Origin: Minisyncoccota bacterium
GTDB taxonomy: Bacteria; Patescibacteriota; Minisyncoccia; Phycocordibacterales; SBAW01
NCBI GenBank assembly: GCA_035510635.1
Contig: DATKGU010000001.1
Coordinates: 649-64,648 of the forward strand
Direction: 5' to 3'
DNA: 64,000 bases
Part shown: positions 6,264 through 46,078 of the stretch, piece by piece
Numbering within the stretch: position 1 is the first letter of the stretch
Layout of the letters: each line of letters begins with the position of its first letter
The notes under the pieces: model-generated
The model's input: the letters and a program-made list of their open reading frames with translations, nothing else
The model's database searches: none
Told to the model about the DNA's origin: nothing
Made by a program: the position numbers and the translations under genes

Positions 6264-6818
6264 ATGCCTAAATTAATTCAAGAACAACAGCAAACCGCGT
6301 TTGACGCACTCAAAGGAGAGTTTGGGTGGACCAACCGCATGCAGGTGCCTAAGCTCCAAAAGGTGGTTATCTCCGTGGGCGTAGGCAAAATGGCCAAAGA
6401 CAAAAACAAAGTCGAGTTGGTGGCCGACCGCCTTGCAAAAATTACCGGTCAAAAGCCTGCCGACCGCGGCGCTAAAAAGTCTATCGCAACGTACAAAACA
6501 CGCATCGGCGACAAAATTGGCTACCAAATTACGCTCCGCGGCAAGCGCATGCAAGATTTTCTTAACCGCCTCATCCACATTGCGCTCCCGCGCACCAAAG
6601 ACTTTAAAGGCATCGGGGCGAAAGGCATCGATGCGATGGGCAACTACACGCTCGGCATCAAAGAGCACATCGTCTTCCCCGAGACAGCCGACGAAGACAT
6701 CAAAGACGTCTTTGGCATGGCCGCAACCGTGGTAACGACTGCCAAAAACCCTAAAGAAGCAAAAGCATACCTAACGCACCTCGGTTTTCCGTTTAAGAAG
6801 GACGTTTCGCAAAAATAA
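6264..6818 (+). CDS. rplE: 50S ribosomal protein L5
   Basis: L5 family, conserved position. Confidence 0.95.
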   Translation: MPKLIQEQQQTAFDALKGEFGWTNRMQVPKLQKVVISVGVGKMAKDKNKVELVADRLAKITGQKPADRGAKKSIATYKTRIGDKIGYQITLRGKRMQDFLNRLIHIALPRTKDFKGIGAKGIDAMGNYTLGIKEHIVFPETADEDIKDVFGMAATVVTTAKNPKEAKAYLTHLGFPFKKDVSQK

Positions 6819-6942
6819 CGTTTCGTCCCTTAGTTAAAGGAGATTCTAGATTTCGACTTGGATGGTTGCAGTTGACTCCTGGGGTACCATTTTGGGAGAC
6901 TATTTACATATTCTAGTTAAAAAGTAGGGTCATATAGATTTG

Positions 6943-6971
6943 CCGCCTAGCATTGAGTCAGGCGGCTTTTT
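6943..6971 (+). terminator. intrinsic terminator (gccgcct/aggcggc stem plus ttttt) after rplE
   Basis: 7-bp GC stem, 11-nt loop, T-run. Not expected inside a contiguous spc operon, so it marks an island boundary. Confidence 0.6.
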
Positions 6972-7162
6972 CCATTCCATAGACAATGAGGAGTGTTAAT
7001 TTTTGTTGTCCCCATCCACACCCCAACTCCACCTCGTATTAAAAAGTGGGGTATTATTACTACGGTAGCTCGCATCTTTGAGAGCTATCACGTTCTTACA
7101 ATTGAATATCAGCGAGTAGCCTAAACCATCGAGCGTTCGGTGGCATGGTGAAAGCGAAAAAT

Positions 7163-7262
7163 GTCCAGTTAGACATAAAAAACCCATCATGGGAATGTCT
7201 AACTGGCCGTACCGGGAAACTGGTACGGGAGGTTTCGGCCTCCACCCGTGGTGGGCTTTTTG
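7163..7262 (+). promoter_or_regulatory. structured leader with four consecutive hairpins, the last a terminator-like stem plus T-run 7 nt before the start codon
   Basis: 12-bp perfect stem ccagttagacat/atgtctaactgg (7165-7206), then ccgtacc/ggtacgg, gagg/cctc, ccacc/ggtgg followed by ctttttgctttc and ATG at 7268. Confidence 0.45.
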
Positions 7263-7267
7263 CTTTC

Positions 7268-10200
7268 ATGAATAAATATTTCTTTCGCAATATTTCAATA
7301 AAAATCGTAGCTTCGTGGGCAACCGTTATTTTCGTGTTCGCAACATTACTCTGCTCTCCATCGGCCGCCTTAGCCATTAGCTATACACCGGGCCAAACAC
7401 TCAACCCAGCGTGTACACCCACTGACCCAACCTGTGTAGTTACTTCAACCACCAATCAGGCGGCAATATTTGTCGCCACTTCTACAACGGCTACCTCCAC
7501 TTTTGCAGGCAATGTTTCAGTCTCTGGCAATGTAGCCATCGGCAGCCTATCCGGTATCCTCAAAGCAGTAACCGGTGTTGTAACAACGGCACTTGTTAAC
7601 CTCTCTGGCGATGTCACTGGAATTCTCGGTATCAGTAATGGTGGCACTGGCACTTCAACTTCGCCAACTTACGGAAAAATATTGGTGGGCAATGGCTCGG
7701 GTGGTTACAACCTCATGGCCACTTCATCGCTCGGAATTGTTACTTCATCTGCAGTATATGCGACAAACTACGGCGTTAAATGCGATGGCGTGACCGATGA
7801 CACGGCAGCAATGCAAGCCGCAGCGAATACGGGTCGGGTTGTTATGTATCCGGCCGGCGTGTGTAAGTTCTCGACATTGGTCATCTCATCCGGTGGCATC
7901 ATCGGCGAAGGTGAGATGGTCCTTCCAGGGAGTTCCCCAAATCTTATTCCTGGCGGTACGGTATTGTTGTCGACTGATACAGGAAGTGGAAATACTATTT
8001 CTTATGTAGCCGACTGGAGTACCGGTAACCCCGGCGTATTTCGTAATTTTTCGCTATTGCCAAGCTCGGGTACGGTCCAAAAGTCCGGCGGCGTAGGTAT
8101 TTATATTAGCGGCAATGTCAGCGGCGACGGATATGTAAACAATTATACAGCAGTCGATAATATATTAATCCGTTACTTTCCCACCTCGATATCACTTCAG
8201 GACTCAGCTGCCTGGACTATCTCAAATAGTAATTTTCTTTTCTATAGAGTCGCTGGCATTGCTGCGGGTAACTTAATTGCCCCCGACCAAGGCGACTCTA
8301 GCATTTATGCGACCACTCTTTTCAATGGCAATGGAGGTGAGTGGGCGACAGAAGGTTCCGGAATCCTCCAGACTTCGAGCGGTGGCCTAAAGATTTCGGA
8401 TACAAAATTTAATGGTGGAAAATATGGCTACCAATGGGCGCAAGCAGGGCAGACCTCCGACACGTTGATTTCAAACAGCAGTTTTGAGAATATCTCAACG
8501 GCAGCTGTCGATTTTCAGAATACAATCAATACATCGGGCTCACCTGTCCGTTTTACCAATATAAAAATCACTGGAAATCAGTTTGCCGGCGACAACCGCG
8601 ATATTTATCTGGAGCCTATTTCACAATATTTGGGCTCATCTTATTGGGACAACATTGTTATATCCGGAAATACTTTCTATCTTGCGACTCTCAGCTCCAT
8701 CGAGCTAGACACGGCTCGAGAGTTTACGATCGTCGGGAATACCATAAATGGTAATTACTCTACACCGGTAGGTATTTTGATTGCATCGTCTGATGATGCT
8801 ACAGGATTTGTAGGAGCAAACAATATTTCCGGTGTCGGCACGGCGGTTGTAAACAATAGTGCCACAGTAACCGTCAGTTCCAGCAACAGTGCCGTTGGGG
8901 CTTTTAATGTTTCTGGTACGGGTGCTGCGTATCAGCTCTTTGGAAATACTGCCTTGTTCGCGAGCACCACAAACTCTTCGCTTGCCGTTGGCGCGCCTGA
9001 AGCTGCTGGCTGGATGACCGCATCTTCGTCTCCCCAATGGCGCTCGATTGCTATCGGCGCTGGTGCACTTGCCACTACTCCAATCAACAGTGCAGCAACC
9101 AAAAACATCGCTGTAGGATACAACGCACTCAATGCCAACACTTCGGGTTTTTGGAATACCGCCGTAGGAGATAGTGCGCTTAACTCCAACACCTCCGGCA
9201 TACTCAATGTTGCGACCGGAATGAATGCACTTAATGCTAATACCACTGGTGGCTATAATGTCGCGACTGGCTTTCAAGCTCTCTACACGAACACCACCGG
9301 TAGTGACAATGCAGCGGTAGGGTATAACGTCCTTAATAATAACCTAACCGCTGCAAATACCGTTGCAATAGGTTTTAGTGCGGCAGTAGGTTCGGGCAGC
9401 TATTCAAACCAAGGTGGTGTTTATATTGGTTACCAGGCAGGCGATCAGGTCCAAACGGGCTCCGACTACAACACCATCATCGGTTATAATGCCGGCTACG
9501 CTCTGACTACTGGCGCGCGCAATATTCTTATTGGTCAGTCCACTATTCCGACTTCTTACAATCAGGTCAAAACTGGCTCAAAGAACATATCAATTGGTAA
9601 TGATGTGGCAGTTGCATCTTCAACCGCATCCAACCAACTCGACATTGGCAACTTCATTTATGGAACAGGCTTGAGCGGCACTGGGGCGAGCGTCTCACCC
9701 GCATACATCGGATTCGGTACCACCACCCCATATGCTTCTCTCGAAGTTTGGGGCTCCACCAACACGGGTTCAACCACAGTCTTCTCGGTCGTGAGCAGCG
9801 CCTCCACTACACTCTTCTCCGTTTCTGCAAACGGATACGCCACCCTTCAAAACTCCCTCTACCAAAGCTCAGACCAACGCCTCAAAACTGACATTACTAC
9901 TCTGGATGCATCATCTTCTCTTGCTGCATTGTTAGCACTTACTCCTGTTTCCTATACCCGCATCGACCAGCCTGAGCTTGGTACTAACTTAGGATTCATT
10001 GCCCAACAGGTGCAACAAATCTTCCCTGAACTTGTCTCTACCAGCTCACCAACAGCTCTTACCCCTGACGGTACACTTACACTCAATTACACAGGCCTTA
10101 TTGCTCCGATTGTGAAAGCGATACAAGCGATTGCAAGTGAGATTGTTTCTATTCAAAATACGATTGCGGGGTTTGCCAATAGTTTTACAACCAAACAACT

Positions 10201-10591
10201 TTGTCTTACCGACAGTTCAGGGACAACTTGTTATACTCGTTCTCAGCTTAATGCAGTAGTTGGAAATGCTGCAACGCCCTCCGTCCAAATCAGCACCCCA
10301 ACCACCCCCGTCATCTCAACCACCACCCCTCCCACCATATCTATCCAAGGCCAAAATCCAGCCACCATACACGTCGGCGACACTTACACCGACTTGGGAG
10401 CTCTTGTCACCGACAATCAAGGCCACCGCCTGGGTTACACCACCTACCTCAATGGCACACTGGTATCAACTCTCACGATTGATACAAGCACTACAACAAC
10501 TGACACCATAGACTATGTAGCAACCGACACGTGGGGCAACACAGCAACCTCCACACGCACCGTGATAATTGCCCCAGTCTCTTCCCAGTAA
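7268..10591 (+). CDS. secreted tailspike/tail-fibre-like surface protein (1107 aa): signal peptide, pectate-lyase-like beta-helix, N-x-A-V/I-G repeat region, peptidase S74 intramolecular chaperone domain, C-terminal Ig-like (DUF5011-like) domain
   Basis: N-terminal hydrophobic signal (MNKYFFRNISIKIVASWATVIFVFATLLCSPSAALA). YGVKCDGVTDDTAAMQAAANTG matches the pectate_lyase_3/tailspike hallmark. Long runs of NTAVGYNALNANTSG-type repeats. SDQRLK...GFIAQQVQQIFPELV matches the S74 chaperone-of-endosialidase signature. C-terminal ~230 aa are near-identical to the 27815-30433 paralog. ATG 7268 preferred over track start 7145. Confidence 0.8.
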   Translation: MNKYFFRNISIKIVASWATVIFVFATLLCSPSAALAISYTPGQTLNPACTPTDPTCVVTSTTNQAAIFVATSTTATSTFAGNVSVSGNVAIGSLSGILKAVTGVVTTALVNLSGDVTGILGISNGGTGTSTSPTYGKILVGNGSGGYNLMATSSLGIVTSSAVYATNYGVKCDGVTDDTAAMQAAANTGRVVMYPAGVCKFSTLVISSGGIIGEGEMVLPGSSPNLIPGGTVLLSTDTGSGNTISYVADWSTGNPGVFRNFSLLPSSGTVQKSGGVGIYISGNVSGDGYVNNYTAVDNILIRYFPTSISLQDSAAWTISNSNFLFYRVAGIAAGNLIAPDQGDSSIYATTLFNGNGGEWATEGSGILQTSSGGLKISDTKFNGGKYGYQWAQAGQTSDTLISNSSFENISTAAVDFQNTINTSGSPVRFTNIKITGNQFAGDNRDIYLEPISQYLGSSYWDNIVISGNTFYLATLSSIELDTAREFTIVGNTINGNYSTPVGILIASSDDATGFVGANNISGVGTAVVNNSATVTVSSSNSAVGAFNVSGTGAAYQLFGNTALFASTTNSSLAVGAPEAAGWMTASSSPQWRSIAIGAGALATTPINSAATKNIAVGYNALNANTSGFWNTAVGDSALNSNTSGILNVATGMNALNANTTGGYNVATGFQALYTNTTGSDNAAVGYNVLNNNLTAANTVAIGFSAAVGSGSYSNQGGVYIGYQAGDQVQTGSDYNTIIGYNAGYALTTGARNILIGQSTIPTSYNQVKTGSKNISIGNDVAVASSTASNQLDIGNFIYGTGLSGTGASVSPAYIGFGTTTPYASLEVWGSTNTGSTTVFSVVSSASTTLFSVSANGYATLQNSLYQSSDQRLKTDITTLDASSSLAALLALTPVSYTRIDQPELGTNLGFIAQQVQQIFPELVSTSSPTALTPDGTLTLNYTGLIAPIVKAIQAIASEIVSIQNTIAGFANSFTTKQLCLTDSSGTTCYTRSQLNAVVGNAATPSVQISTPTTPVISTTTPPTISIQGQNPATIHVGDTYTDLGALVTDNQGHRLGYTTYLNGTLVSTLTIDTSTTTTDTIDYVATDTWGNTATSTRTVIIAPVSSQ

Positions 10592-10614
10592 GTGACTTGA
10601 TATATCAAGTCACT
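10591..10614. repeat. perfect 24-nt palindrome agtgacttgatatatcaagtcact at the gene junction
   Basis: Overlaps the stop codon of the preceding gene. Possible hairpin or operator. Confidence 0.5.
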
Positions 10615-10623
10615 ACAAAATCA

Positions 10624-11418
10624 ATGAAAACTTTTGTATTAAGTAGCATCACCTTTCTTGTACTTCTCTCTAGTGCAAGCATTGCTTTGGCCTCCACCGG
10701 CACCATCGACCCCACCAACCACTACGCTTGGAGCGACAACGGAGGCTGGGTCAACTGGTATGCCACTGGAGGGAATGTACAAGTAACAGACACCGCACTC
10801 ACTGGCTACATCTGGTCTGCCGGCTTTGGCTGGATTAACCTTGCTCCTACCAATGGAGGAGTACTTAACACCGGAGGCTACCTCAGTGGCTATGCCTGGG
10901 GAGCCAGCACCGGTTGGATTAGCTTCCTTGGTGTCACCATCGACCAACAGGGCGTCTTCCATGGACACACCGTGGCACAAAACATCTTTGGCACCATGAC
11001 CTTTGACTGTGATAACTGCAAGGTCACCACTACGTGGAGACAGGGAAGCACAAACACAAACACAGGCGGTGGTGGCACAGTGAGTGGCCCTCTTGCGGTG
11101 GGGTATACCAACCCTTCGACAGGCTCATCACAAGCCACCACCTCAACTAAACCTCTGCCTCCAACCCTCATACCCACCTCCAAACCCTCTACCATTCCAC
11201 AACCCACCTCTAAACCACCCTCTTCATCTAAGAGCCCAACCTACACCACTCAAACACCTCTTGTCCCCGTATTTCCAACGAATAATGTAAAAACAAATAC
11301 CAAAGGCGGCAACGCAACCCCACCTTTCACTCCTGCATCTGTTGCTCCAAGCTGCACGTGGTTAACTTGCTGGTGGCAATCAATAATTGGATTCTTTGCA
11401 CGGTTGTTTGGGAGGTAA
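10624..11418 (+). CDS. secreted repeat protein with Pro/Thr-rich linker and C-terminal hydrophobic anchor (264 aa)
   Basis: Signal peptide MKTFVLSSITFLVLLSSASIALA. Three G-W-containing repeats (GWVNWY / GFGWINL / STGWISFLG), a PT-rich stretch, and C-terminal CTWLTCWWQSIIGFFARLFGR. ATG 10624 preferred over 10531. Confidence 0.6.
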   Translation: MKTFVLSSITFLVLLSSASIALASTGTIDPTNHYAWSDNGGWVNWYATGGNVQVTDTALTGYIWSAGFGWINLAPTNGGVLNTGGYLSGYAWGASTGWISFLGVTIDQQGVFHGHTVAQNIFGTMTFDCDNCKVTTTWRQGSTNTNTGGGGTVSGPLAVGYTNPSTGSSQATTSTKPLPPTLIPTSKPSTIPQPTSKPPSSSKSPTYTTQTPLVPVFPTNNVKTNTKGGNATPPFTPASVAPSCTWLTCWWQSIIGFFARLFGR

Positions 11419-11627
11419 ATATCAAAGGGTATCATCACTGAGGAGGAATTTACAGCAAAGAAAAACAATTACTCGGCATTTAAGTTTGGGTGGTCTACCC
11501 ATATACCATTAAAGACCGACCAGCTTGCCTTGTAGAAAGGTTCTCTAGGCGTCTAGGGACGTTTCTGATGATGGAGAACGGTGGGGTATGTGGTTTCCTT
11601 CAACCCGCAATCTAATTCTTCTTCTGT

Positions 11628-11680
11628 GAGGGGATTTTATATTTTTATGCCACAAAAATAGTGGTGTAGTAAATCCCCTC
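11628..11680. repeat. 10-bp inverted repeat gaggggattt / aaatcccctc (33-nt spacer) in the intergenic region
   Basis: Seen directly in sequence. Nearby tgcaggtttatatgcaggt direct repeat at 11717-11740. Confidence 0.4.
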
Positions 11681-11945
11681 CAAAAATGCTTTTGTTCGAG
11701 CCATTTTTATATGGTCATTTTTCATGTATCTGCAGGTTTATATGCAGGTACCTAGAAGTATTTGCAACATTTTTTTGGACAAGTCAAATTGCTGTGCTAC
11801 TGTCGAGGAGTCTTGAAGAAAAAAGTCGAAAACAAGGTTCCTGAGATTGAGCTTGAGTGTACACGAGCTTTCGATCTCCTGTTTAAACTTTTAATCGGCA
11901 CGGACGAAAACGAACAAAAGCCCTTATAAAGTAAAGATAATTGTT

Positions 11946-12131
11946 ATGGATAAAAACTATAAGCATCCGTGGCTCTGTCGCGGGTGTGGGGCGAAGTTGA
12001 AGTGGCCGCTGGTGGTCAAAAGCATTTTTGGAAACGGTTGGGTTTGTTTTGGGTGCCAAGTCAAGGAGTGCATAAACGGTGATTTTATTCGCGGGCACGA
12101 GAGAGGGAAAAACATCCCTCCCCGAACATGA
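11946..12131 (+). CDS. small Cys-rich zinc-ribbon-like protein (61 aa)
   Basis: CRGCGAKLKW...CFGCQVKEC gives two CxxC pairs. First gene of a 3-gene overlapping (translationally coupled) module. Confidence 0.5.
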   Translation: MDKNYKHPWLCRGCGAKLKWPLVVKSIFGNGWVCFGCQVKECINGDFIRGHERGKNIPPRT

Positions 12132-12394
12132 GCGCTGGGCGCGGTGTGCGTTCCAGCTGGCTTGAACACAAATTGGACGAGTTGATGCACGACATCAAAG
12201 CATACGCGGAGGCCCATTCGGAAGCGTGGTGGATTTATAGCACGGACATCGAGATGCAATACGCCGAAGGCGACTACGTACAGTTGTGGGACGAACTTGA
12301 GTGGATGCGGGGCAATGTCAAAAATCCAGCGTTTCGAAATATGTTGACCGAGGCGCTGGAGTTAATAAAAGCAATAAATATCGAGTATGAGTGA
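12128..12394 (+). CDS. hypothetical acidic protein (88 aa)
   Basis: 4-nt start/stop overlap with both neighbours. No recognisable motif. Confidence 0.45.
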   Translation: MSAGRGVRSSWLEHKLDELMHDIKAYAEAHSEAWWIYSTDIEMQYAEGDYVQLWDELEWMRGNVKNPAFRNMLTEALELIKAINIEYE

Positions 12395-13055
12395 TGACTG
12401 CGGAGTGCCGCCACTCTTTCCGGGTTTTAGGCCGGAGGACTTCACAAAGGCGTTCTTCAAATATCCGAGGGTGCTGGAGCAGTACTGGCACGTCATGACG
12501 AACAGCGAGGCCAAGGTGCTCACGTTCCTGCTCCGCATGCTTCCGGGTTTCCAAAAAACACAGGATGCTGTGAGCCTGAGCCAGTTCATGGGTGGCGTCG
12601 GCTCCCACAACAAGGGTACGGGTATCAGTCGCACACAGGTTCGGCGGGCAATCGAAGGTTTAGAGGAAAAAGGGTTCATAATCCGAACGCGCCAGCCAGG
12701 GCGGTCGACGGTGTACCGTCTTCGCTACACCGAAGGATTGGCGGTCGAAACTGTGCCAGTGAAAGAAGCTCCCTTGGAGATTCAACGCCTTATACGGCTC
12801 TTCATGCCGGTCGCCGAGCATCGCGTAGAGACCTACCTACAGGACAGGACGCAGATTAAGGCAATCGAGCGGCTGGTTGAGTACTACGGCGTTGAAAAAG
12901 TTGAGGCCTACATCAACACTCTGCCGACGATTCATGGAAAGCGCTTTATGCCGGTCATCACGTCGCCGGTAGAGCTTGAACAGAAACTGCCGAAGTTGGC
13001 TGACGCTATAAAGCGGCGACGAGGCGAAGAGGGGAACAGTCAAATGCTGTTCTGA
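12387..13055 (+). CDS. winged-helix DNA-binding protein, phage replication-organiser/regulator-like (222 aa)
   Basis: SEAKVLTFLLRM...GISRTQVRRAIEGLEEKGFIIRTR looks like a wHTH. Lies in the phage-like module upstream of the serine recombinase. Confidence 0.5.
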   Translation: MSDDCGVPPLFPGFRPEDFTKAFFKYPRVLEQYWHVMTNSEAKVLTFLLRMLPGFQKTQDAVSLSQFMGGVGSHNKGTGISRTQVRRAIEGLEEKGFIIRTRQPGRSTVYRLRYTEGLAVETVPVKEAPLEIQRLIRLFMPVAEHRVETYLQDRTQIKAIERLVEYYGVEKVEAYINTLPTIHGKRFMPVITSPVELEQKLPKLADAIKRRRGEEGNSQMLF

Positions 13056-13355
13056 CCATGCCCATGCAGGGCACAGCAGCCGGTGCACTGCTTGGGCACA
13101 CACCGGGTACAAAAGTATGCACGCCTACCGTGTCCATGCCACAAACAGAACAATAGTTAATAGAACAATAGAAATTAACAATACTGGTTGAGCTTTTTCT
13201 GGAAAGGAAAAGCTGGAAAAGGAAAGTCGGGCATCATCAGTTTCAGAATGTCCGCACACTGTCCGACTTTTTCTTCGCCAGCAAATGCGCCTGTTCCGCG
13301 TCCAGTAGTTCCAACAGTTTACAACTGCTAACAGCCAATTATTATCAGCCAAATA

Positions 13356-13506
13356 ATGAATGACATCGAAGCACTGCGAGACTACATCATTGCCGACGAG
13401 ATACATCGTATCCAATCGCTGTCACACGAGGAGTTAGTGCGTGAGCTCGTCGAACTCAGTTCTCGGGAGATTGAAAAAATGACTGACTCCCAACTCTTGA
13501 TTAAGT
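13356..13506 (+). CDS. possible small ORF (50 aa) immediately upstream of the recombinase gene
   Basis: ATG 13356 to TAG 13504 (MNDIEALRDYIIADEIHRIQSLSHEELVRELVELSSREIEKMTDSQLLIK). Below the ORF-track length cut-off. Candidate Xis/RDF-like or regulator, speculative. Confidence 0.25.
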
Positions 13507-13527
13507 AGAACCCCCACAAGACCATAA

Positions 13528-15273
13528 ATGAAATTAGATAACTCACAACCTAAAAAAGAACTTCGAGCGGCGATCTACCTTAGAGTGTCGACCTTAGCCC
13601 AGTCCGAGGAGGATGCTTACGGCCTCGATGTGCAGGAGGAAAGAGCTCGTAAGTTTTGCACCTCGCAGGGGTACCTCCTCGATGAAGCTCACCTCTATAC
13701 CGACAAAATTTCCGGAGGTACACGACCGGAGGAACGTGAGGGATTATCCAAACTACTGGCCGCTGCCGAGAGAGGGGAGTTTGACTGCATGCTGGTCTAC
13801 AAAATTGACCGCGTTGCCAGAAACCTAAAAATTTTCCTTGGCATTGTTGAGCAGCTGCTGGCACTTAAACTTATCTTCCGCTCTGTCACTGAGCCAATCG
13901 ACACCTCAACCCCGATCGGGGAGATGGTGATGCAAATTTTGGCAATGTTTGCTCAATTTGAGAGAGGCATGATTCGAGACCGCACTATGAGCGGTCGAAT
14001 ACAAGCTGCCAAACATGGTTCTTGGGTGGGAAGCGTGCCTCCGTATGGGTACATCCTTAATAAAACCACCCGCAGGTTGGAGATTAATCCAAAGGAGGGG
14101 AAAATCGTGAAGCAAATATTTAAGTGGCTGGTGGATGACAAGTTGGCCGTCCACGAAATTGAGCGACGACTAAATGCAATGCAGGTGCCGGCACCATGGT
14201 CGACTAAAATTAGTACCAAAGAAACACAAAACGTTTGGCGCAAGTTCAGTGTAATAAGAGTCTTGGTCAATGAAGTACACACTGGCACCTTTTACTACCG
14301 CAAGTTCCGCAAACCGTTTAATGGCTTGACCAGCATTACTGACCCCAGCCGACTACGGCCGAGAGAGGACTGGATAGAGCAACATTGCGACCCCATTATC
14401 ACGACCGAGATGTACGAAGCGGCAAAGCGTCAACTTACACACAACCGAGAGTTTGCCCGACGCAACCGCAAGCATGAGTACCTATTCTCCAAAATCATCT
14501 ATTGTAGTGGGTGCAAACACAAAATGTTCGGTGGATTCCAGCCCGCTAGGGAAGAGTGGGGATACCAAGGTGGTCGGTACTACCACGGTGTGTATCGTAA
14601 GGACGATGCGCTAGGCAAGACAGCGCGATGCCAGTGGTGCCCCAACTACTCCGAGGCACGGCTTGAGCCGGTATGGGACTGCCTTAAAGATATATTAAAG
14701 AACCCGAAGAACATGACACGGCCTTTGGAGAAATATATACATAAGGAAAAAGACCCCCTGCCGGTCAAGCAGCGGCTTCAGGATATTGATACAGCCTTGG
14801 ATACCATAAGCAGAAAACGTGACCGTGTGGACGCGCTCTATATAAATGAGCAACTGGATGAGCAAAAGTACAAGGCCTATCAGGTCGAGTTCAAGCAAGA
14901 CGAACAGCGGCTTAGGGATGAGCAAACGCACCTCCGACAGACCTTGTTAAGCAAGCGAGAGGTTGCTGACCGCCAGAAAGCGGTGCAGCGCGCATACGAA
15001 CAAGTCAAAGCTCGGCTTGATGCCGTTACCTACGACGAGAAAGCTAAAATCGTCTCATACTTCGTTGAGCGCATCACTCTGCACGCCAAAGAGAACTATG
15101 CGGAGGTGGTGTTCAGATTCTCCAAAGGCACAGACATAGGTACCGTAGCTACCTTGCAAGGAGACAAAGCCTTCCCGCTGGTGCACAAAATCAACACCAT
15201 CCCCGAGAGGGAGCGGAGAGCCACTCTCATGGCAACGAACCCCGAGATGTTCGTGTCGAAGGTGCTGGTGTAA
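13528..15273 (+). CDS. large serine recombinase (phage integrase/transposase-type, 581 aa)
   Basis: N-terminal resolvase catalytic domain (AAIYLRVSTLAQ..., VYKIDRVARN), recombinase domain, Cys-containing zinc-ribbon region (CSGCKHK...CQWC), coiled-coil C-terminus. Confidence 0.9.
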   Translation: MKLDNSQPKKELRAAIYLRVSTLAQSEEDAYGLDVQEERARKFCTSQGYLLDEAHLYTDKISGGTRPEEREGLSKLLAAAERGEFDCMLVYKIDRVARNLKIFLGIVEQLLALKLIFRSVTEPIDTSTPIGEMVMQILAMFAQFERGMIRDRTMSGRIQAAKHGSWVGSVPPYGYILNKTTRRLEINPKEGKIVKQIFKWLVDDKLAVHEIERRLNAMQVPAPWSTKISTKETQNVWRKFSVIRVLVNEVHTGTFYYRKFRKPFNGLTSITDPSRLRPREDWIEQHCDPIITTEMYEAAKRQLTHNREFARRNRKHEYLFSKIIYCSGCKHKMFGGFQPAREEWGYQGGRYYHGVYRKDDALGKTARCQWCPNYSEARLEPVWDCLKDILKNPKNMTRPLEKYIHKEKDPLPVKQRLQDIDTALDTISRKRDRVDALYINEQLDEQKYKAYQVEFKQDEQRLRDEQTHLRQTLLSKREVADRQKAVQRAYEQVKARLDAVTYDEKAKIVSYFVERITLHAKENYAEVVFRFSKGTDIGTVATLQGDKAFPLVHKINTIPERERRATLMATNPEMFVSKVLV

Positions 15274-15285
15274 AAAAGCTGAATT

Positions 15286-15606
15286 TTACTCCGAGTCTTT
15301 CCTCCGCTGAATAGCACGTAGCACCGTAGCGGCTACAAAATCTTTGCGTGCCTCTCCCAATACGGGCAACGCAGCCAGTACAGACGCATTGTTTGTTGGG
15401 AGTAAGTCCACTTTTCCTTCGTTGTAGTTAGTAAGTTGCGTCAGGAACTCATCGAGCCACGATGGTGTTACGGTGAGCACTTCGTCAAAGTCGATTTGGA
15501 TCGCCTCATCAGGATTAAGTTGCGGACGGATAGCATTAAATGCCTCTAGCCCTGCTGGACGAGAAACAAGTACGGAGCCAAATTTTTTAAGTTGAATGGT
15601 TTGCAT
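15286..15606 (-). CDS. STAS-like (DUF4325-type) anti-sigma-antagonist-fold protein (106 aa)
   Basis: Small alpha/beta protein, IDFDEVLTVTPSWLDEFL similar to the SpoIIAA/RsbV phosphorylation loop. Adjacent to and co-oriented with the GHKL ATPase gene. Confidence 0.6.
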   Translation of the reverse strand: MQTIQLKKFGSVLVSRPAGLEAFNAIRPQLNPDEAIQIDFDEVLTVTPSWLDEFLTQLTNYNEGKVDLLPTNNASVLAALPVLGEARKDFVAATVLRAIQRRKDSE

Positions 15607-15618
15607 ATCTAACGTGTC

Positions 15619-16344
15619 TTAAAATAGTATAACAGCATATGTGCCACGGATATTTCCGTCAGTCATCTTAATGTGCATCAATCCGGGGCCGGTAGGGATG
15701 TTAACGAGGCCGATGCCCGAACGGAACAAGAGTCCAATTTCCTTTGACTCTACAACATTGCGGACCACTTTGAGTCCGTTGCCACGCTTCTCCGGGTTTC
15801 TTCCCGAAACAATTTCCGTAAACGCTACCGTTAGAGCATCGACATCGGTAGTAAGATTTGGTCGCACTTGTTGGAGTGTTGCTTTTACGCCACGTCCGCG
15901 GTCTGCAAGAACTATCACCCGCTTTGCAATGTCATATGCATAAAATACACCTGGCACATCAGGCCAGTTACCAACGTTGTGTGCGAAAGAGTTATCGCCA
16001 ATTTCTGCTGCAACCAGTGTGAGGAGCGATGCTAAGTCTTCGGGCATATGCCCCGTTTTCTGCAATTCTATCCCCATCTTAGCCACTCGACTGGTGAAGC
16101 GATCTGGTCGTTCGCAATAATATTCACTTGGAAGTGCTGGCGGTATGGCGCTTGTTGCCCATGCTAATCCAAGCATCTGAAGGTCGAGAGCAAAACTATT
16201 AAGGTCTCGTAGAGCATAATAGCGGTGCTTTCCTCCACTCCGTTCAGCACGAAGCTTCCCGGATTTCTCCCAGTTGCGTAGGGTTTGAACGGATACATTA
16301 AGTATCTTTGCCGCCTCACCTATGCGTACTTTTCCAGTATTCAC
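15619..16344 (-). CDS. excisionase/MerR-type HTH fused to GHKL (anti-sigma-factor-kinase-like) ATPase (241 aa, GTG start)
   Basis: N-terminal IGEAAKILNVSVQTLRNWEKSGKLRAERSGGKHRY resembles HTH_17/excisionase. Bergerat-fold boxes EIGDNSFAH (ExxxNxxxH), ADRGRGV (DxGxG), RGNGLKVV (GxGL). Confidence 0.75.
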   Translation of the reverse strand: MNTGKVRIGEAAKILNVSVQTLRNWEKSGKLRAERSGGKHRYYALRDLNSFALDLQMLGLAWATSAIPPALPSEYYCERPDRFTSRVAKMGIELQKTGHMPEDLASLLTLVAAEIGDNSFAHNVGNWPDVPGVFYAYDIAKRVIVLADRGRGVKATLQQVRPNLTTDVDALTVAFTEIVSGRNPEKRGNGLKVVRNVVESKEIGLLFRSGIGLVNIPTGPGLMHIKMTDGNIRGTYAVILF

Positions 16345-16362
16345 CCTGTCAGATTAGGGTCA

Positions 16363-16396
16363 AAACCTATAAAAGTCAAGATTTGTTTATAGGTTT
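16363..16396. promoter_or_regulatory. palindromic operator AAACCTATAAA-N12-TTTATAGGTTT, 19 nt upstream of the HTH-GHKL gene
   Basis: Perfect 11-bp inverted repeat. Half-site TAGGTTT recurs in a second palindrome and again at 17821-17831. Confidence 0.6.
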
Positions 16397-16426
16397 ATGT
16401 GTAAAACTTACAAAAACAGCCCTTAT

Positions 16427-16451
16427 TGTAGGTTTAACAGGGAAACCTACA
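16427..16451. promoter_or_regulatory. second operator palindrome TGTAGGTTT-N7-AAACCTACA
   Basis: 9-bp inverted repeat sharing the TAGGTTT half-site. Confidence 0.55.
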
Positions 16452-16625
16452 ACCACTGAAATGGCCTTACTATGGGTTCTAAAATTGAGACTTTGGAGGT
16501 CATAATCTTAAAGAGCCGATTCTGTATGGATATTTGTTGGGTTTTGCTATCCTCCTTTCCTAAAAGGAGGAACACAAAAACTCCCAGGGTGTTTTAGCGG
16601 AACAACTGCCAAGAAGTAAAATAAC

Positions 16626-16659
16626 AAAAAAGCTCGGATTTCAATCCGAGCTTTTTTGT
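16626..16659. terminator. bidirectional intrinsic terminator aaaaaagctcggatt tcaa tccgagctttttt
   Basis: 9-bp stem flanked by A-run and T-run. Confidence 0.65.
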
Positions 16660-16695
16660 GATATCGTCTGTGGCGGAACTGTATAGGAGCACCAC

Positions 16696-16908
16696 ATGAG
16701 CGGATATCGAGGCGTCGAGCTTGATTTTGGCGCATATAATTGGCCTCAAAATCGGGTCGAGTTTGACTTGGTGGCGTCGCAAGGCAGCAGATCGGGTTGC
16801 GCCACGACAACACCCCGCACAACCTTTAAGCCCGCGGCGCATGTCACTCCAAGGTTTCGCAAGCGGGACAAGAAGTCCACCAGCGTCGGTAAGAAGAGAA
16901 AGAAATAA
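16696..16908 (+). CDS. possible small basic protein (70 aa)
   Basis: ATG preceded by AGGAG at -8, unlike core genes here that lack SD. C-terminal KR-rich tail. No family recognised. Confidence 0.3.
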   Translation: MSGYRGVELDFGAYNWPQNRVEFDLVASQGSRSGCATTTPRTTFKPAAHVTPRFRKRDKKSTSVGKKRKK

Positions 16909-17096
16909 GGAGAGAGGCCAAAGCGACCCAGGATTATTCCGGTGTCGCTTTTTTAAATGTTGGACCTGCGAGGTCGAACAATTCTCCATATTTTAGAGGG
17001 CTAAAATAACCTTATTAAACAAGGGTCTTGACGACTTGACAAATCTATTGCTTTAACATATAATAGGTAGGAAAGCTCATTCAAAGGAGAGAGCAG

Positions 17097-17600
17097 ATGT
17101 TTCTAAGCTGGAAGTTCAATGAGGAAAAAGAACCTCGTGGGTGGGTTGAAAGGTTCACCAACGGCACTGGTCCTGACACTAAAAAAGAAATACAGCGGAG
17201 ACGACACCTACTTGAAAACGAACGTCCACCGTATCGTGTATACACAGTTGAATGGATGGATACTGATGCAACCATCTGGACTATCGAAAAGTGGTATGTG
17301 AAGGAAGTTACCCTCGCATACATTCTGAAGAAAAATGGTGAGCCTATCACTGGTGGTGGCACCATCCACTTGCCCCGCTTTGTGTATAAATATCCAGATG
17401 GAAAAACGGGTGAGGTGATAATGGAGACATACGCACTTATCCCGTCTTGGTTAGAGATAGAGCCCTTTAAAGGTCAAACCATGATCTGGGGTTTGCGTAC
17501 TGATGGCACTCGCCGCGATGCTGGAAATATATGTGAAAATTTCCTTTGCCAAGAGGTGGCTAAGGACGACAACCTTCACCCTGTTGTGAGATTGGGCTAG
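17097..17600 (+). CDS. hypothetical protein (167 aa)
   Basis: Strong SD (aaggagag) 8 nt upstream. No recognisable motifs. Last gene of the island. Confidence 0.5.
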   Translation: MFLSWKFNEEKEPRGWVERFTNGTGPDTKKEIQRRRHLLENERPPYRVYTVEWMDTDATIWTIEKWYVKEVTLAYILKKNGEPITGGGTIHLPRFVYKYPDGKTGEVIMETYALIPSWLEIEPFKGQTMIWGLRTDGTRRDAGNICENFLCQEVAKDDNLHPVVRLG

Positions 17601-17742
17601 TAGAACACTTGACTGAACTGTAAAGTCTAAATGTAATACAGATCTTTTTCTCTCTTGTCATAACGCCGGAGATTCCGGTATCGGAAATAAAGCCCACCGC
17701 AAGGTAGGGCTTTCGTATTTATGGGGAAGAAGATTATATAGT

Positions 17743-17800
17743 TTGACTTATGGGAGCTAATCGCTTATATTGCTCGTAGCCCTCAAGGGCTCCTTTTTTC
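17743..17800 (+). promoter_or_regulatory. promoter TTGACT-17-TATATT followed by hairpin agccc/gggct plus T-run, upstream of rpsZ
   Basis: Hexamers 17743-17748 and 17766-17771, hairpin 17777-17791 with ccttttttc. An orphan copy of the TTTATAGGTTT half-site lies at 17821-17831. Confidence 0.45.
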
Positions 17801-17891
17801 TAGACGGTGCCGCTTAGTCCTCCTTTATAGGTTTGGGCGAGGCATACCTCCAGAATCATAACCCCGGGGTTACGGGGTGCATCACTCACAT

Positions 17892-18077
17892 ATGGCAAAA
17901 AAGTCTACAGTAGCACGCTCAAACCGCGCACCCAAGTTTAAATCTCGGGTGGTTAATCGTTGCTTCCGCTGTGGTCGCAAGCGCGCCTTTATGCGCGACT
18001 TTGGCATGTGCCGCGCCTGCTTCCGCGAAGCCGCAAATGAAGGATTGATCCCTGGTGTCAGAAAGTCATCTTGGTAA
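17892..18077 (+). CDS. rpsZ: 30S ribosomal protein S14 type Z (zinc-binding, 61 aa)
   Basis: CxxC...CxxC motif (CFRCGRK...CRAC), typical short S14. ATG 17892 preferred over track 17877. Confidence 0.93.
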
Positions 18078-18117
18078 TTCACTAAACCCTACACCCTAAG
18101 ATCTATACCCTAATTAT

Positions 18118-18504
18118 ATGATTACTGACCCTATTGCAGACATGCTGGTACGCATCCAAAACGCCTCGATGGCGGGGAAGGACCGCGTCTCTATGCCGCG
18201 CTCACAGATGAAGCTCGCCATCGCCGAGATACTCAAGCGCGAGGGCTACGTGAGCGAGGTAGACAAAAAATCAAAAAACAACGACCTCTCGCTCATGCTT
18301 TCCTACAAAAACGGCCGCCCGGCGTTTGGCGGATTTAAACGCGTCAGCAAACTCTCCCGCCGCATGTACATGGGCGTGCGCGACATCAAACCGGTTAAGC
18401 GCGGCCATGGTCTTCTGGTGCTCTCGACTCCCGCAGGCATCCTCACAGGCAAAGAGGCGCAGATTAAGCGCGTTGGCGGCGAGGCCCTGTTCGAAATTTG
18501 GTAA
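18118..18504 (+). CDS. rpsH: 30S ribosomal protein S8
   Basis: S8 family (MITDPIADMLVRIQNA...). Confidence 0.95.
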   Translation: MITDPIADMLVRIQNASMAGKDRVSMPRSQMKLAIAEILKREGYVSEVDKKSKNNDLSLMLSYKNGRPAFGGFKRVSKLSRRMYMGVRDIKPVKRGHGLLVLSTPAGILTGKEAQIKRVGGEALFEIW

Positions 18505-18510
18505 ACCATT

Positions 18511-19044
18511 ATGTCACGACTTGCTAAACGACCCATTGCACTGCCCGCTAAAACTGAACTCACGTTCAAGGCTAACGAGCTTTCTGTAAAAGGCCCTAAA
18601 GGTACGCTCACCAAAGCGGGGCACCGCCTCATTGGTATCGAGAACGTGCCGGAGGGTGTGCAGGTATCCACCAAGGCAGACACGCTTGAGGCTCGCGCAC
18701 TTGTGGGCACCTACGCCAGCCACGTGCGCAACATGCTCGAGGGTGTTACCAAAGGTTTTACTAAAAAACTTTTAGTCGAAGGCGTCGGCTACAAGTGGGA
18801 GGTGCAGGGCAAGACGCTCAACCTCGCACTCGGATTTTCTCACCCGGTAAAAATGGACATCCCCGAGGGGCTCACCGTTAAGGCCGAGAAGAACGCCCTC
18901 ATCATTGATGGATTTGATAAAGAGCTTGTCGGACAATTTGCTGCCAACGTGCGTGCACTCAAAAAGCCGGAGCCGTACAAGGGCAAAGGTATCCGCTACG
19001 AGGGCGAGGTCATCCGCCGCAAGCAGGGTAAGAAGGCTGCATAA
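18511..19044 (+). CDS. rplF: 50S ribosomal protein L6
   Basis: L6 family, conserved position. Confidence 0.95.
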   Translation: MSRLAKRPIALPAKTELTFKANELSVKGPKGTLTKAGHRLIGIENVPEGVQVSTKADTLEARALVGTYASHVRNMLEGVTKGFTKKLLVEGVGYKWEVQGKTLNLALGFSHPVKMDIPEGLTVKAEKNALIIDGFDKELVGQFAANVRALKKPEPYKGKGIRYEGEVIRRKQGKKAA

Positions 19045-19053
19045 AGAACCACC

Positions 19054-19419
19054 ATGAAAACTAAAAGCATCACAAATCAGATAAACCGCGAGCGCCGCCA
19101 TGCGCGCATCCGCGCCAAGATTATGGGCACTCCCGAGCGCCCGCGCCTCGCCGTGTTTAAATCAAACCGTTATTTGCACGCGCAGATAATTGACGACACG
19201 CTTGGCAAGACGCTTGTTGCTGGTAGCACCAAAGAGGTAGGCGCTGCAAAAAAAGGCGTCAAAAAAATGGATGCCGCCAAACTGCTTGGTCTCGACTTGG
19301 CAAAGCGCGCCAAGGCGGCGGGTATTGAGACTGTGGTGTTCGACAGGGGAGGCTTTCGTTACACTGGGCGCATTACCACATTGGCCGACGCCGCGCGCGA
19401 GGGCGGTCTCAAATTTTAA
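19054..19419 (+). CDS. rplR: 50S ribosomal protein L18
   Basis: L18 family ([18 protein letters not shown]). Confidence 0.93.
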
Positions 19420-19425
19420 TATCAT

Positions 19426-20046
19426 ATGGATGACATCGAACAAAAAGACGTTATAGCAGAGGCGGCACCGGAGATTGTTGCCGATGTGGCTCTTCCTGTT
19501 GTCGAGGAGGTAGCGCCGGCACCTGCCGACACGCGCCGCGCGCGCCCTGATAGGCGTGGCGGCAAGCCAGGTGAGCGCGGTGGTCGCCGCCCCTCAACCC
19601 GCCGCCCCGAGCGCAAAAGCGAGTTTGACCAGCGCATCATCACGATACGCCGCGTGTCTCGCGTGGTCGCCGGCGGTCGCCGCTTCTCTTTCTCCGTGGC
19701 AATCATCATCGGCAATAAAAAAGGCAGAGTGGGTGTCGGCCTCGGCAAAGCAGGGGACACCACGCTCGCTATCGACAAGGCGGTGCGCAATGCAAAGAAA
19801 AACATGATAACGGTGCCGCTCACCAAAAACTCCTCAATAACGCACGATGTGTCCGCAAAATATTGCGCATCGATTGTCACCATGACACCGGCACGCGGCC
19901 GCGGCTTGGTGGCGGGCTCCTCGGTACGCCCGGTGCTTGAGCTCTGCGGCATCAACGACATCGTTGCCAAGATACACTCGGGCAGCAAAAACGGTCTCAA
20001 CAATGCACGCGCCGCAATTGAGGCACTAAAGACGCTAAAGGCGTAA
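19426..20046 (+). CDS. rpsE: 30S ribosomal protein S5 with ~60 aa acidic/Arg-rich N-terminal extension
   Basis: S5 dsRBD plus C-terminal domain (RRFSFSVAIIIGNKKGRVGVGLGKA). Confidence 0.93.
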   Translation: MDDIEQKDVIAEAAPEIVADVALPVVEEVAPAPADTRRARPDRRGGKPGERGGRRPSTRRPERKSEFDQRIITIRRVSRVVAGGRRFSFSVAIIIGNKKGRVGVGLGKAGDTTLAIDKAVRNAKKNMITVPLTKNSSITHDVSAKYCASIVTMTPARGRGLVAGSSVRPVLELCGINDIVAKIHSGSKNGLNNARAAIEALKTLKA

Positions 20047-20080
20047 ATAGAAATTTTAATTTCTATATATAAAAAAAGAT

Positions 20081-20527
20081 ATGCAACTCCACGATTTAAA
20101 ACGCAAAACAGAAAACAAGTCGCCTAAGCGCGTTGGCCGCGGCGGCGGTCGCGGTAAAACCTCCGGTCGCGGTACCAAGGGTCAAAAGGCGCGCGCGGGT
20201 CACAGCATCATGCCGGCCATCCGCGAGCAGCTCAAAAAGCTCCCTAAGCTCCGGGGCAGGGGCGTGGGCGGTCTCATCACCATCCAAAACAAGCCGCTTG
20301 TCGTTAATCTCTCGAGCCTCGAAACGGCGTTTCTCGCAGGCGATGCAGTCAATCCTAAAACGCTCATCGAGCGCGGCCTTATCCGCACGCGCAAAAACAT
20401 GTCCAAAGCCCCGATTGTTAAAATCCTCGGCGGCGGTGAGCTCACAAAGAAGTTTGTCATCACTGGTTGCAGTGTGTCCGGCAGTGCTCGGGCAAAGATA
20501 GAGCAGGCGGGCGGTTCGGTCGCATAA
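20081..20527 (+). CDS. rplO: 50S ribosomal protein L15
   Basis: L15 family. No rpmD (L30) between rpsE and rplO. Confidence 0.93.
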   Translation: MQLHDLKRKTENKSPKRVGRGGGRGKTSGRGTKGQKARAGHSIMPAIREQLKKLPKLRGRGVGGLITIQNKPLVVNLSSLETAFLAGDAVNPKTLIERGLIRTRKNMSKAPIVKILGGGELTKKFVITGCSVSGSARAKIEQAGGSVA

Positions 20528-20533
20528 CACTTT

Positions 20534-21808: not shown

Positions 21809-21812
21809 GCGC

Positions 21813-22388
21813 ATGGACACGCGCACGTTTCTTATGATGGGGCGGCCCGGCTCGGGCAAAGGCACCCAGGCAAAATTGCTTGCCGACAAAATCGGCGGAG
21901 TGGTGTATTCGTCGGGCAATAGGCTTAGACCGATGAGTCAAACTGACACCCCGTTTGGTCACAAAGCCAAACAGGTTATGGAGAGCGGAGATCTTATGCC
22001 CGAGTGGGCTTCGGAGTTTTTATTTGAGGAAGCGCTTATAGGCTTGCGCGCCGAGGATGGAATTGTGTTTGAAGGTGCGTGTAGGCGCGAATTGGAGGCC
22101 GTAAAATTTCACGAAGTTTCAACATGGCTTGAGCGGCCTTACATTACAATTTATTTAGACGCAAGTGAGACGGTGCTTATGGATAGGCTTCTTAAACGCT
22201 ACACACTCCAAAATCGTCCCGATGATGCAAATTCCGAAGTCATCAAAAACAGATTCGATAAATTTACTAAAAACACGCTCCCAGCAGTAAATCATTTTAA
22301 AAAAGAGGGCACGCTGCTTGCCGTCAACGGCGACCAATCAGTCGAGGCGGTGCATGCCGACGTTCTTAAAGCCCTACATTTATCGTGA
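21813..22388 (+). CDS. adk: adenylate kinase (short form)
   Basis: P-loop GRPGSGKGTQ. ATG 21813 is immediately after the secY stop. Confidence 0.9.
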   Translation: MDTRTFLMMGRPGSGKGTQAKLLADKIGGVVYSSGNRLRPMSQTDTPFGHKAKQVMESGDLMPEWASEFLFEEALIGLRAEDGIVFEGACRRELEAVKFHEVSTWLERPYITIYLDASETVLMDRLLKRYTLQNRPDDANSEVIKNRFDKFTKNTLPAVNHFKKEGTLLAVNGDQSVEAVHADVLKALHLS

Positions 22389-38847: not shown

Positions 38848-39283
38848 AGTATTTGCGTTCAACATTACATTACCGAACGCTATCGTAAAAATATAGCAAC
38901 CTAAAATATCAGTAACTGTCAATATTAAGGTGAAGGTATAATACAAAGGTCTGGCACAGAAGTTAGTCACTGGCAGATATACCTACTGGAATTGGCTGGT
39001 AGGGAAGTACGTTAATAATGGTCAATAGGCACTTCAAGAAGTCGTCCGTCAGTGCAAGCGTTTCTGCACTCAGCTGAGCGACTTTGCTTAAGGCAAGCAC
39101 GACCGCCGCAAGGCTTGTAGTGTGAGTCAAGGTAATGTGCATGTTGATTATATAAACTAAGTAAAGTTCACCATTCCTGGCTATCTTTGGGTAGTCTTAT
39201 GACCGTAATAGCCCCGCGCTCCGCCGATGCATTTGCATTAATAAGGACACCAGGAGTCCGAGGAGCCGTGTGGGTATGAACTT
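38848..39283 (+). ncRNA. candidate RT-associated structured noncoding RNA (436-nt AT-rich region with extended -10 ggtataat and multiple hairpins)
   Basis: No ORF of at least 60 aa. TATAAT at about 38935. Hairpins agtgca...tgcact and ttgcttaaggcaagca. Located directly upstream of the RT gene. Confidence 0.4.
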
Positions 39284-40651: not shown

Positions 40652-40670
40652 CTGGTGCTTTTTGTTCTGT

Positions 40671-41035: not shown

Positions 41036-41049
41036 CGGCATCCCCATAG

Positions 41050-46071: not shown

Positions 46072-46078
46072 CTAAAGT

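Follow-up and report, generated by a model that had tools for sequence, protein, structure and literature searches.

Elements that integrate by means of a large serine recombinase are a well-known kind of mobile DNA, with SPbeta, phiC31 and Bxb1 as reference cases. SPbeta, a complete prophage, disrupts the gene into which it integrates, and in Bacillus subtilis the small gene sprB, located next to the integrase gene sprA, encodes the directionality factor of SprA. In Streptococcus thermophilus, integrative and conjugative elements (ICEs) and non-autonomous cis-mobilizable elements (CIMEs) stack at one att site through tyrosine recombinases. Serine-integrase ICEs in the rumA gene of streptococci and clostridia exchange the 3′ end of their target gene (PMC4701971), and streptococcal tyrosine-integrase ICEs target the 3′ ends of the ribosomal-protein (r-protein) genes rplL, rpsI and rpmG (PMC4701971). 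Our literature search found no serine-recombinase element in Parcubacteria/Patescibacteria, no element targeting rplE, and no serine integrase at an r-protein gene. Here we analyse a 64,000-nucleotide stretch of a Minisyncoccota genome (contig DATKGU010000001.1, positions 649-64,648; hereafter the window), in which, as a first-pass annotation had pointed out, about 11 kb (approximately 11.07 kb) separates rplE (6264-6818) from rpsZ (17892-18077). Positions 6797-16612 (~9,816 bp) very probably constitute a mobile unit that was integrated by its own large serine recombinase and that belongs to a family of elements specific to Paceibacteria, in the Candidate Phyla Radiation (CPR). The family is new, while the kind of element is the well-known one. 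The junctions place the predicted insertion not between genes but inside the 3′-terminal codons of rplE, with replacement of the tail of L5.

To delimit the element, we compared the window with ~150 related loci, labelled L001-L150, and derived the att sites from cross-genome comparison of the junctions. The features at the two ends of the element are the following.

6264-6818, + strand: rplE (L5, 184 aa), identified by Pfam context and translation; codons 180-184 and the stop codon (6801-6818, DVSQK-stop) would be supplied by the element.
6795-6796, + strand: putative attL crossover dinucleotide AA, in codon K178 of rplE; the attL region covers ~6761-6836.
6797-6912, + strand: left end of the element, consisting of the P′ arm (GAAGGACGTTTCGCAAAAAT) and a block common to related elements.
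6942-6971, + strand: element hairpin and T-run, read from the sequence, 125 nt past the rplE stop codon and to the right of attL.
16517-16612, + strand: right end of the element (Block R), consisting of a conserved hairpin region and the P arm (GTTTTAGCGGAACAACTGCC).
16611-16612, + strand: putative attR crossover dinucleotide AA.
16611-16659, + strand: displaced native rplE tail (AAG AAG TAA, KK-stop) and native terminator (16624-16659), matching the empty site of L010.

At the left junction, rplE switches from host-like to element-like sequence within AAGAAG in six genomes (the window, L001, L009, L014, L097 and L100). The sequence that follows, GGACGTTTCGCAAAAATA, encodes DVSQK-stop and is near-identical across these six genomes, whose L5 is otherwise only 73-100% identical; in most relatives the tail of L5 is KK-stop. 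The whole left end is 78-90% identical to L001 and L012, and the similarity to L001, a 98% identical strain, stops exactly at 6912. We considered 6912/6913 as the left boundary and rejected it: the preceding 94 nt are already only 78% identical to L001, so that 6912 marks the end of the shared element end and not attL.

At the right junction, a conserved block of ~100 nt ends in the P arm, ...GGAACAACTGCC (GTTTTAGCGGAACAACTGCC), and then continues into AA-GAA. Past this point lies a short in-frame tail with a stop codon that varies by genome (KK-stop in the window, KKQ-stop in L100, KKV-stop in L097 and KKS-stop in one L014 copy), and beyond the tail the window, L097, L100, L026 and L032 also have a terminator. 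Block R is also conserved in L097, L100, L149, L014, L032, L012 and L026, as well as in two elements that adjoin comM instead of rplE (L111 and L113). The latter occurrence excludes the interpretation of Block R as a host small-RNA gene serving as attB, because Block R closes the comM-type elements too. Block R was also tried as a structured RNA and rejected, as RNAalifold returned no consensus fold and the Rfam matches were sub-threshold and only terminator-like.

Joining the two element-side halves rebuilds an attP with the sequence GTTTTAGCGGAAC-AACTGCC-AA-GAAGGAC-GTTTCGCAAAAAT. Its 12-nt arms, TTTTAGCGGAAC and GTTTCGCAAAAA, are inverted repeats that match at 10 of 12 positions, each 7 nt from the central AA; the chance of a match of at least 10/12 at a fixed register is ~3e-05. 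Joining the two host-side halves gives an attB of the form ...CCGTTT-AA-GAAGTAA followed by a terminator. The layout of this attB matches the empty site of L010, in which the end of rplE runs through ...CCGTTTAAGAAGTAA into an A/T-rich stretch and a terminator, with no sequence similarity between the two past the stop codon. The comparisons narrow the crossover only to the AAGAA common to both junctions, within which AA was picked from the symmetry of attP and is the probable crossover dinucleotide. Computed from the junctions of 6-8 genomes, the sites thus have the form expected of a serine integrase: a short attP and attB with imperfect dyad symmetry, and hybrid attL and attR. A repeat search of the segment for att sites in the form of direct or inverted repeats yielded chance-level pairs only. 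The element of the window measures approximately 9,816 bp; its counterpart in L097 has 9,959 bp and that in L100 has 8,420 bp, giving a range of 8.4-10 kb overall.

These boundaries revise two points of the first-pass annotation. The island had been drawn from 6819 to 17876, while the mobile unit delimited here is shifted at both sides, and 16660-17740 lies outside it. The hairpin and T-run at 6942-6971 had been taken as the terminator of rplE; the structure is real (it escaped our terminator scan owing to its 11-nt loop) but is borne by the element, and the native rplE terminator is the one at 16624-16659, which the scan flagged.

The arrangement suggests how the element could have entered without damaging an essential gene. 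In the proposed mechanism, attP would have recombined with an attB spanning the last rplE codons, at the AA of codon K178. The P′ arm would provide the DVSQK codons and a stop codon to L5, which would thereby be kept intact, and the insertion would have shifted the old KK-stop tail and the old terminator 9.8 kb downstream. The element terminator at 6942-6971 would halt read-through from the upstream r-protein genes, and the downstream r-protein genes should be unaffected, because rpsZ owns a promoter and a leader. An essential r-protein gene could in this way be a safe landing site, since the element rebuilds the end of the gene.

Exact-protein look-ups together with a GTDB scan with L5 yielded ~90 related rplE loci, and the GTDB records closest to the window are metagenome-assembled genomes of Minisyncoccia, Paceibacterota and Adlerbacteria. 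The window itself is patescibacterial DNA of Paceibacteria/Adlerbacteria type. Integrases that are 82% (L097-L099) and 69-72% (L100-L102) identical to that of the window sit between rplE and rpsZ, and L149 has an integrase of 72% identity on a contig that shows only the downstream side of the integrase. In all of these loci, a RepO-like gene and a small open reading frame (ORF) lie directly upstream of the integrase, and the cargo differs, comprising a HATPase_c_3 protein with NYN/HEC-09, an OLD-family nuclease, or Bub/ThiF/ubiquitin-like genes with HigB. L001-L003, which are 98% identical to the window through rplE, have the same kind of P′ arm and carry from 6913 on a methylase, an SNF2 helicase, NOV_C and DUF2130. 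In L010, whose L5 is 97% identical, the site is empty, and rplE ends in KK-stop followed by a terminator. The site is therefore polymorphic both for presence and for content: empty in L010, with other cargo in L001-L003, and with related elements in L097, L100 and L149. The first-pass annotation would have been contradicted by close relatives that all have the same genes here and never an empty site, and the result goes in its favour; its reading of the segment as a serine-recombinase integrative element is well supported by the alternative cargo in the 98% strain, by the empty site, and by the 69-82% identical integrases at the same site.

More distant integrases, 54-59% identical and accompanied by the same core, adjoin a truncated comM. 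The P arm is joined there to comM sequence encoding LDEFPEF, indicating that a sister clade targets comM. The comM-type loci lie beside the C-terminal half of comM, at 13895-14560 in L143-L146, 7228-7905 in L148, ~4050 in L111 and ~4150 in L113. At rplE itself, remnants of elements are found in L009, L012, L014, L026, L032 and L150. The contig with the L001-type element ends inside the cargo. Two independent short assemblies, L091 and L092, both start at 16363/16364, just upstream of the start of the MerR gene; this position may be a branch point between strain variants with a common element right end, and the breaks hint at, but do not prove, a right end shared with the L001-type element.

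Between the ends, the segment holds the genes and RNA of a conserved core and non-coding stretches beside them, as follows.

7118-7243, + strand: LOOT RNA (Rfam RF03000).
11666-11745, + strand: conserved non-coding block (Block L) upstream of the replication-like module.
11946-12131, 12128-12394 and 12387-13055, + strand: three overlapping genes (overlaps of 4 and 8 nt) for a 61-aa CxxC protein, an 88-aa acidic protein and a 222-aa RepO-like winged-helix protein.
13056-13355, + strand: intergenic region with short iteron-like repeats (GAACAATAG twice and CTGGAAAGGAAAAG twice), an inverted repeat and a promoter-like site at 13318-13345.
13356-13508, + strand: 50-aa acidic helical ORF, directly upstream of the integrase.
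13528-15273, + strand: large serine recombinase (integrase), 581 aa, with Pfam Resolvase and Recombinase domains.

The 581-aa protein is a large serine recombinase, as first annotated, with a Resolvase domain at residues 14-166 (2.1e-34) and a Recombinase domain (PF07508) at residues 188-305 (1.1e-13). Across 35 homologues, the catalytic R19 and S21, as well as T22 and Q25, are invariant, and so are C326, C329, C368 and C371, although the PF13408 zinc ribbon is undetected in this clade. The protein belongs to a clear set of ~580-aa homologues and is less than 28% identical to known phage integrases. Judging from these residues and from the junctions, no decay is apparent in the integrase or in either att arm.

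Directly upstream of the integrase, the 50-aa ORF has tblastn matches of 46-71% identity at the same position in ~25 family loci and no Pfam or PHROG match; its position and conservation make it a candidate recombination directionality factor or regulator. The three-gene coupled module seen in the first pass is confirmed, and its third protein is RepO-like, with a match to the PHROG replication initiation O-like family (1.4e-08) and a match to Pfam Phage_rep_O (2.6e-05) that is below the cutoff of that family. RepO homologues lie upstream of the integrase throughout the family. The intergenic region between the RepO-like gene and the integrase operon could contain an origin and a promoter. Of the repeats that had been reported for the intergenic DNA, the quoted short ones are present at 13080-13226, while most repeats in the segment are at chance level, as are the repeat statistics across the segment as a whole. 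Block L is ~80% identical to L100 8348-8426, including 24 identical bases in a row, and may be a promoter or operator.

The conserved core consists of the RepO-like protein, the 50-aa ORF, the integrase and, in 12/17 loci, the LOOT RNA, and the whole is best described as an integrative element whose replication module is of plasmid or phage type. The element may replicate as an episome and may be active at present.

The LOOT RNA scores 76.7 bits over model positions 1-121, compared with a gathering score of 46.4, and is followed by its own hairpin and T-run at 7241-7262, which the scan flagged as terminator-like. The LOOT motif was described from metagenomes and is not known to have a particular function or context; the text of the discovery paper does not discuss it. 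The 12 integrase-family loci with a LOOT RNA are the window and 11 of the 16 others scanned: L100 (7440-7557), L126 (5525-5644), L143 (6259-6377), L104, L118, L119, L127, L128, L131, L132 and L133. The distance from the RNA to the integrase downstream is 2.5-7 kb; both are encoded on one strand in all of these loci but L128, and the genes around the RNA are not conserved. The four non-integrase rplE loci that we scanned have no LOOT RNA. The window copy fits the full Rfam model, and the motif is here tied to a specific mobile element family, which gives this orphan RNA its first genomic context. In L143, the LOOT RNA lies just downstream of the reverse transcriptase of a diversity-generating retroelement.

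The genes outside the core are swappable cargo, represented in the window by two secreted proteins, one of them a tail-fibre-like surface protein, and by a MerR-GHKL/STAS-like pair.

7268-10591, + strand: 1107-aa secreted tail-fibre/tail-spike-like protein, with a Pfam Peptidase_S74 chaperone domain, an Ig-like domain and PHROG tail fibre/spike matches.
10624-11418, + strand: 264-aa secreted Thr/Pro-rich protein, no family match.
15286-15606, - strand: STAS-like DUF4325 protein, Pfam match just below the cutoff.
15619-16344, - strand: MerR-type helix-turn-helix (HTH) protein whose C-terminal half is GHKL-like, from a weak HATPase_c_2 match (E=0.076) and motifs read by eye.
15286-16517, - strand: cargo module formed by the STAS-like/MerR-GHKL pair and its upstream region.

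Both of the proteins predicted at the outset to be secreted have N-terminal signal-like segments, and the first is the tail-fibre/tail-spike-like protein, which NCBI names 'tail fiber domain-containing protein'. The correct start positions are probably 7268 and 10624, which give the versions found in the public collection. For the proposed HTH-GHKL/STAS pair, the HTH part (MerR) stands, whereas the GHKL part remains weak and the STAS-like match falls just short of its cutoff. PADLOC gave only a weak N-terminal HTH match on the window cargo, and we therefore make no defence-system claim for the pair. The DNA of the module is 91% identical to the reverse complement of L150 2241-3473, while rplE and rpsZ-rpsH of L150 are only ~70% identical to those of the window; a 91% block in a ~70% host is direct evidence of horizontal exchange. 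In L150, a Rifle-aquifer genome, the MerR-GHKL/STAS-like pair also lies between rplE and rpsZ, without an integrase and beside a truncated right-end block. The MerR-GHKL gene is called as 152 aa in L004 (4640-5098; a 99.99% identical assembly) instead of 241 aa, and as 142 aa by NCBI in the source contig; the shorter calls could be a matter of start-site choice or reflect a disabling mutation in some strains.

Pfam and PHROGs agree with the first-pass statement that capsid, terminase and portal genes are lacking: no ORF of 6797-16612 matches any of them, and the only virion-like match is the tail-fibre-like cargo. Pfam also detected no relaxase, coupling protein or type IV secretion genes, and the family members that we examined have no virion genes except a tail-fibre-like cargo gene. 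By gene content, the element is therefore neither a prophage nor a conjugative element. The GC content of the segment is somewhat below that of the flanking r-protein genes.

Downstream of the element, the following features precede and include rpsZ.

17097-17600, + strand: orphan 167-aa gene, with a 12/12 consensus promoter at 17036-17064 and an AAGGAG Shine-Dalgarno sequence.
17743-17771, + strand: rpsZ promoter, TTGACT-17-TATATT, conserved in relatives.
17772-17891, + strand: structured 5′ leader of rpsZ, conserved together with the promoter in ~12 related species.
17892-18077, + strand: rpsZ (S14, 61 aa, zinc-binding type; Pfam Ribosomal_S14, 4.6e-21), with an ATG start and a GTG at 17877.

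The segment had been described as interrupting a highly conserved operon, and this does not hold. In 55 related species for which a single contig covers rplE and rpsZ, the distance between the two ranges from 43 to 4725 bp with unrelated contents; it exceeds 100 bp in 52 and is 43-96 bp in the other three. Many relatives have a terminator-like hairpin, read from the sequences, within ~60 nt of rplE, and the rpsZ promoter, which had been recognized in the first pass, is conserved with the leader as listed above. With rplE terminators and a conserved rpsZ promoter and leader, rplE and rpsZ appear to be in separate transcription units in this lineage, such that no operon is broken and the spacer tolerates extra genes. 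The leader shows compensatory changes in 7 of 20 predicted pairs, has no Rfam match, and may be an r-protein autoregulatory leader. The rpsZ-rpsH leader comprises a 5′ hairpin with a U-run, a long-range helix around GGUGCCGCUUAGUC...GGCGAGGCAUACC, at whose tip variable insertions occur, and another hairpin. The island genes had been described as bearing Shine-Dalgarno sequences unlike the core genes; this is true only for the 167-aa gene at 17097, which lies outside the element and has the only clear one among the segment genes, and the other genes checked in the region are without one, like the core genes. The 167-aa protein has no homologue but itself among 5.8 billion proteins.

The S10/spc ribosomal cluster lies on the + strand. 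Inserts occur in this group at other junctions of the r-protein cluster as well: between rpsJ and rplC, L150 has three additional genes, one of them PaaX-like (9530-11136). There is no rpmD (L30) between rpsE and rplO (window 19426-20527), an absence reported for CPR genomes. Elsewhere in the window, ARAGORN detects a tRNA-Ile with anticodon TAT (UAU) at 46000-46072, although the more usual bacterial means of decoding AUA is a modified CAU anticodon, and a transfer-messenger RNA gene (40671-41045, - strand) lies in a low-GC stretch (39000-41045; ~0.40 compared with ~0.52 elsewhere).

Several observations weigh against an integrative element that is still mobile. We found the integrase in none of 80 GTDB species-representative rplE loci; a scan of IMG/VR returned no attP junction and one distant integrase only; and neither an excised circle nor a population-level empty site was seen for this strain. 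Block R, at ~100 nt, exceeds the usual length of an attP half-site and carries an extra hairpin. The divergence of the integrases (69-82%) roughly tracks that of the r-proteins, so some vertical inheritance is possible, and several relatives (L009, L150) hold only remnants, showing that such elements do decay in place. In addition, although 10980-22827 is reproduced at at least 99.98% identity by separate assemblies (L004-L006), the left 4 kb (6913-10979) occurs in one public assembly only, so that this part is without independent confirmation. One alternative is a remnant that is no longer mobile, left by an element or a small prophage-like ancestor that inserted long ago and is now stable in the chromosome. 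Such a remnant would account for the lack of excision products in the IMG/VR scan, for the absence of capsid, terminase, portal and transfer genes, for the fragments (a DVSQK tail or a left-end scar) that L009 and L150 keep without an integrase or a full Block R, and for an arrangement that is at least 99.98% identical across three sequencing runs. It is nevertheless an unlikely account, as the integrase retains every family-invariant residue, both att arms are nearly the same, at the level of single bases, as those of related elements, other cargo occupies the same junction in a 98%-identical strain, and sizes are similar (8.4-10 kb) in three hosts. The decayed prophage remnant suggested in the first pass is not favoured, with integrase and att arms that look intact and a family that has no virion genes bar the tail-fibre-like cargo. 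We find it hardly credible that there is no site-specific element at all, and that the segment is either a variable spacer produced by ordinary gain, loss and homologous recombination, with the integrase as a passenger, or a mis-assembly. The wide range of gap sizes and contents in ~55 species, none with the integrase, would agree with a variable spacer, but six genomes share their breakpoints to the nucleotide, attP shows dyad symmetry, the tail and terminator of rplE can be recognized in their displaced position, and related integrases occupy the same site; recurrent junctions and attP symmetry largely refute this reading. A mis-assembly would find room in the left 4 kb, for which there is no second assembly, but this very part holds the LOOT RNA that is typical of the family.

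The loci with several copies of Block R raise a different question, namely whether units accumulate beside rplE. Downstream of rplE, L014 has three copies of Block R and L149 four, separating units of one or two genes (the arrays are at 7347-9133 in L014, 7422-9722 in L149 and 5864-6412 in L012). In L012, the real rplE end has a different tail, SAGSQK-stop, and 440 nt further downstream a P arm is joined to a P′ arm of the window type; in L149 the copy right after the integrase element is followed by P′-like sequence. Block R falls into two sequence subtypes, one of which is linked to units without an integrase. The arrays fit repeated insertion at rplE with the newest unit nearest the gene, and small non-autonomous units may take part. 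These same arrays, P′-like sequences and subtypes can be cited for an integron-like accretion platform, in which a serine recombinase would stack cassettes ending in Block R beside rplE and the window would be an array of one unit. We judge this platform very improbable: only one Block R and one P′ arm are present in the window, which is no integron-like cassette array, whole-element insertions followed by decay could equally give arrays, and there is no evidence that the integrase-less units move on their own. A broader version is tentative and rather doubtful: in Paceibacteria, the rplE 3′ end might be a serine-recombinase accretion site, at which autonomous elements (with RepO, small ORF, integrase and LOOT RNA) and small non-autonomous cassettes with Block R only are stacked, newest nearest rplE, each giving L5 a fresh tail, with the LOOT RNA and the Block R hairpin as working parts. 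If true, defence and surface genes would build up in integron-like arrays within genomes in which mobile DNA is otherwise considered scarce.

The integrative element at rplE, as reconstructed here, provides a concrete element family for CPR/Patescibacteria, with a predicted attP and attB, the last codons of rplE as target, a sister clade at comM and a conserved core. The cargo of the relatives (OLD nuclease, NYN, Bub-like proteins, HigB and surface proteins) suggests that such elements move defence and surface genes between CPR lineages. A working integrase with a known att pair might, as a matter of speculation, allow the insertion of DNA into these bacteria.

The element belongs among the large serine recombinase elements exemplified by SPbeta, phiC31 and Bxb1. 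It resembles SPbeta in having a large serine recombinase of similar length, whose family profile aligns with residues 57-509 of SprA (YokA), and in integrating into a protein-coding gene; the 50-aa ORF is a candidate analogue of sprB. It differs from SPbeta in its size of 9.8 kb, in the absence of virion genes, in a target that would be kept intact through a new tail, and in a 50-aa ORF without similarity to known families. If units do stack, as sequence comparison of the Block R arrays of L012, L014 and L149 suggests, this would be reminiscent of the tandem accretion of ICEs and CIMEs in S. thermophilus. The rumA elements are conjugative, and their exchange involves the integrase gene too, whereas the present element lacks conjugation genes, has its integrase gene in an internal position and targets an essential r-protein gene. 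The ICEs at rplL, rpsI and rpmG share with the present element site-specific insertion at the 3′ end of an r-protein gene with little harm to the host; they rely on tyrosine integrases and carry conjugation modules, whereas the element at rplE has a serine integrase and no conjugation genes.

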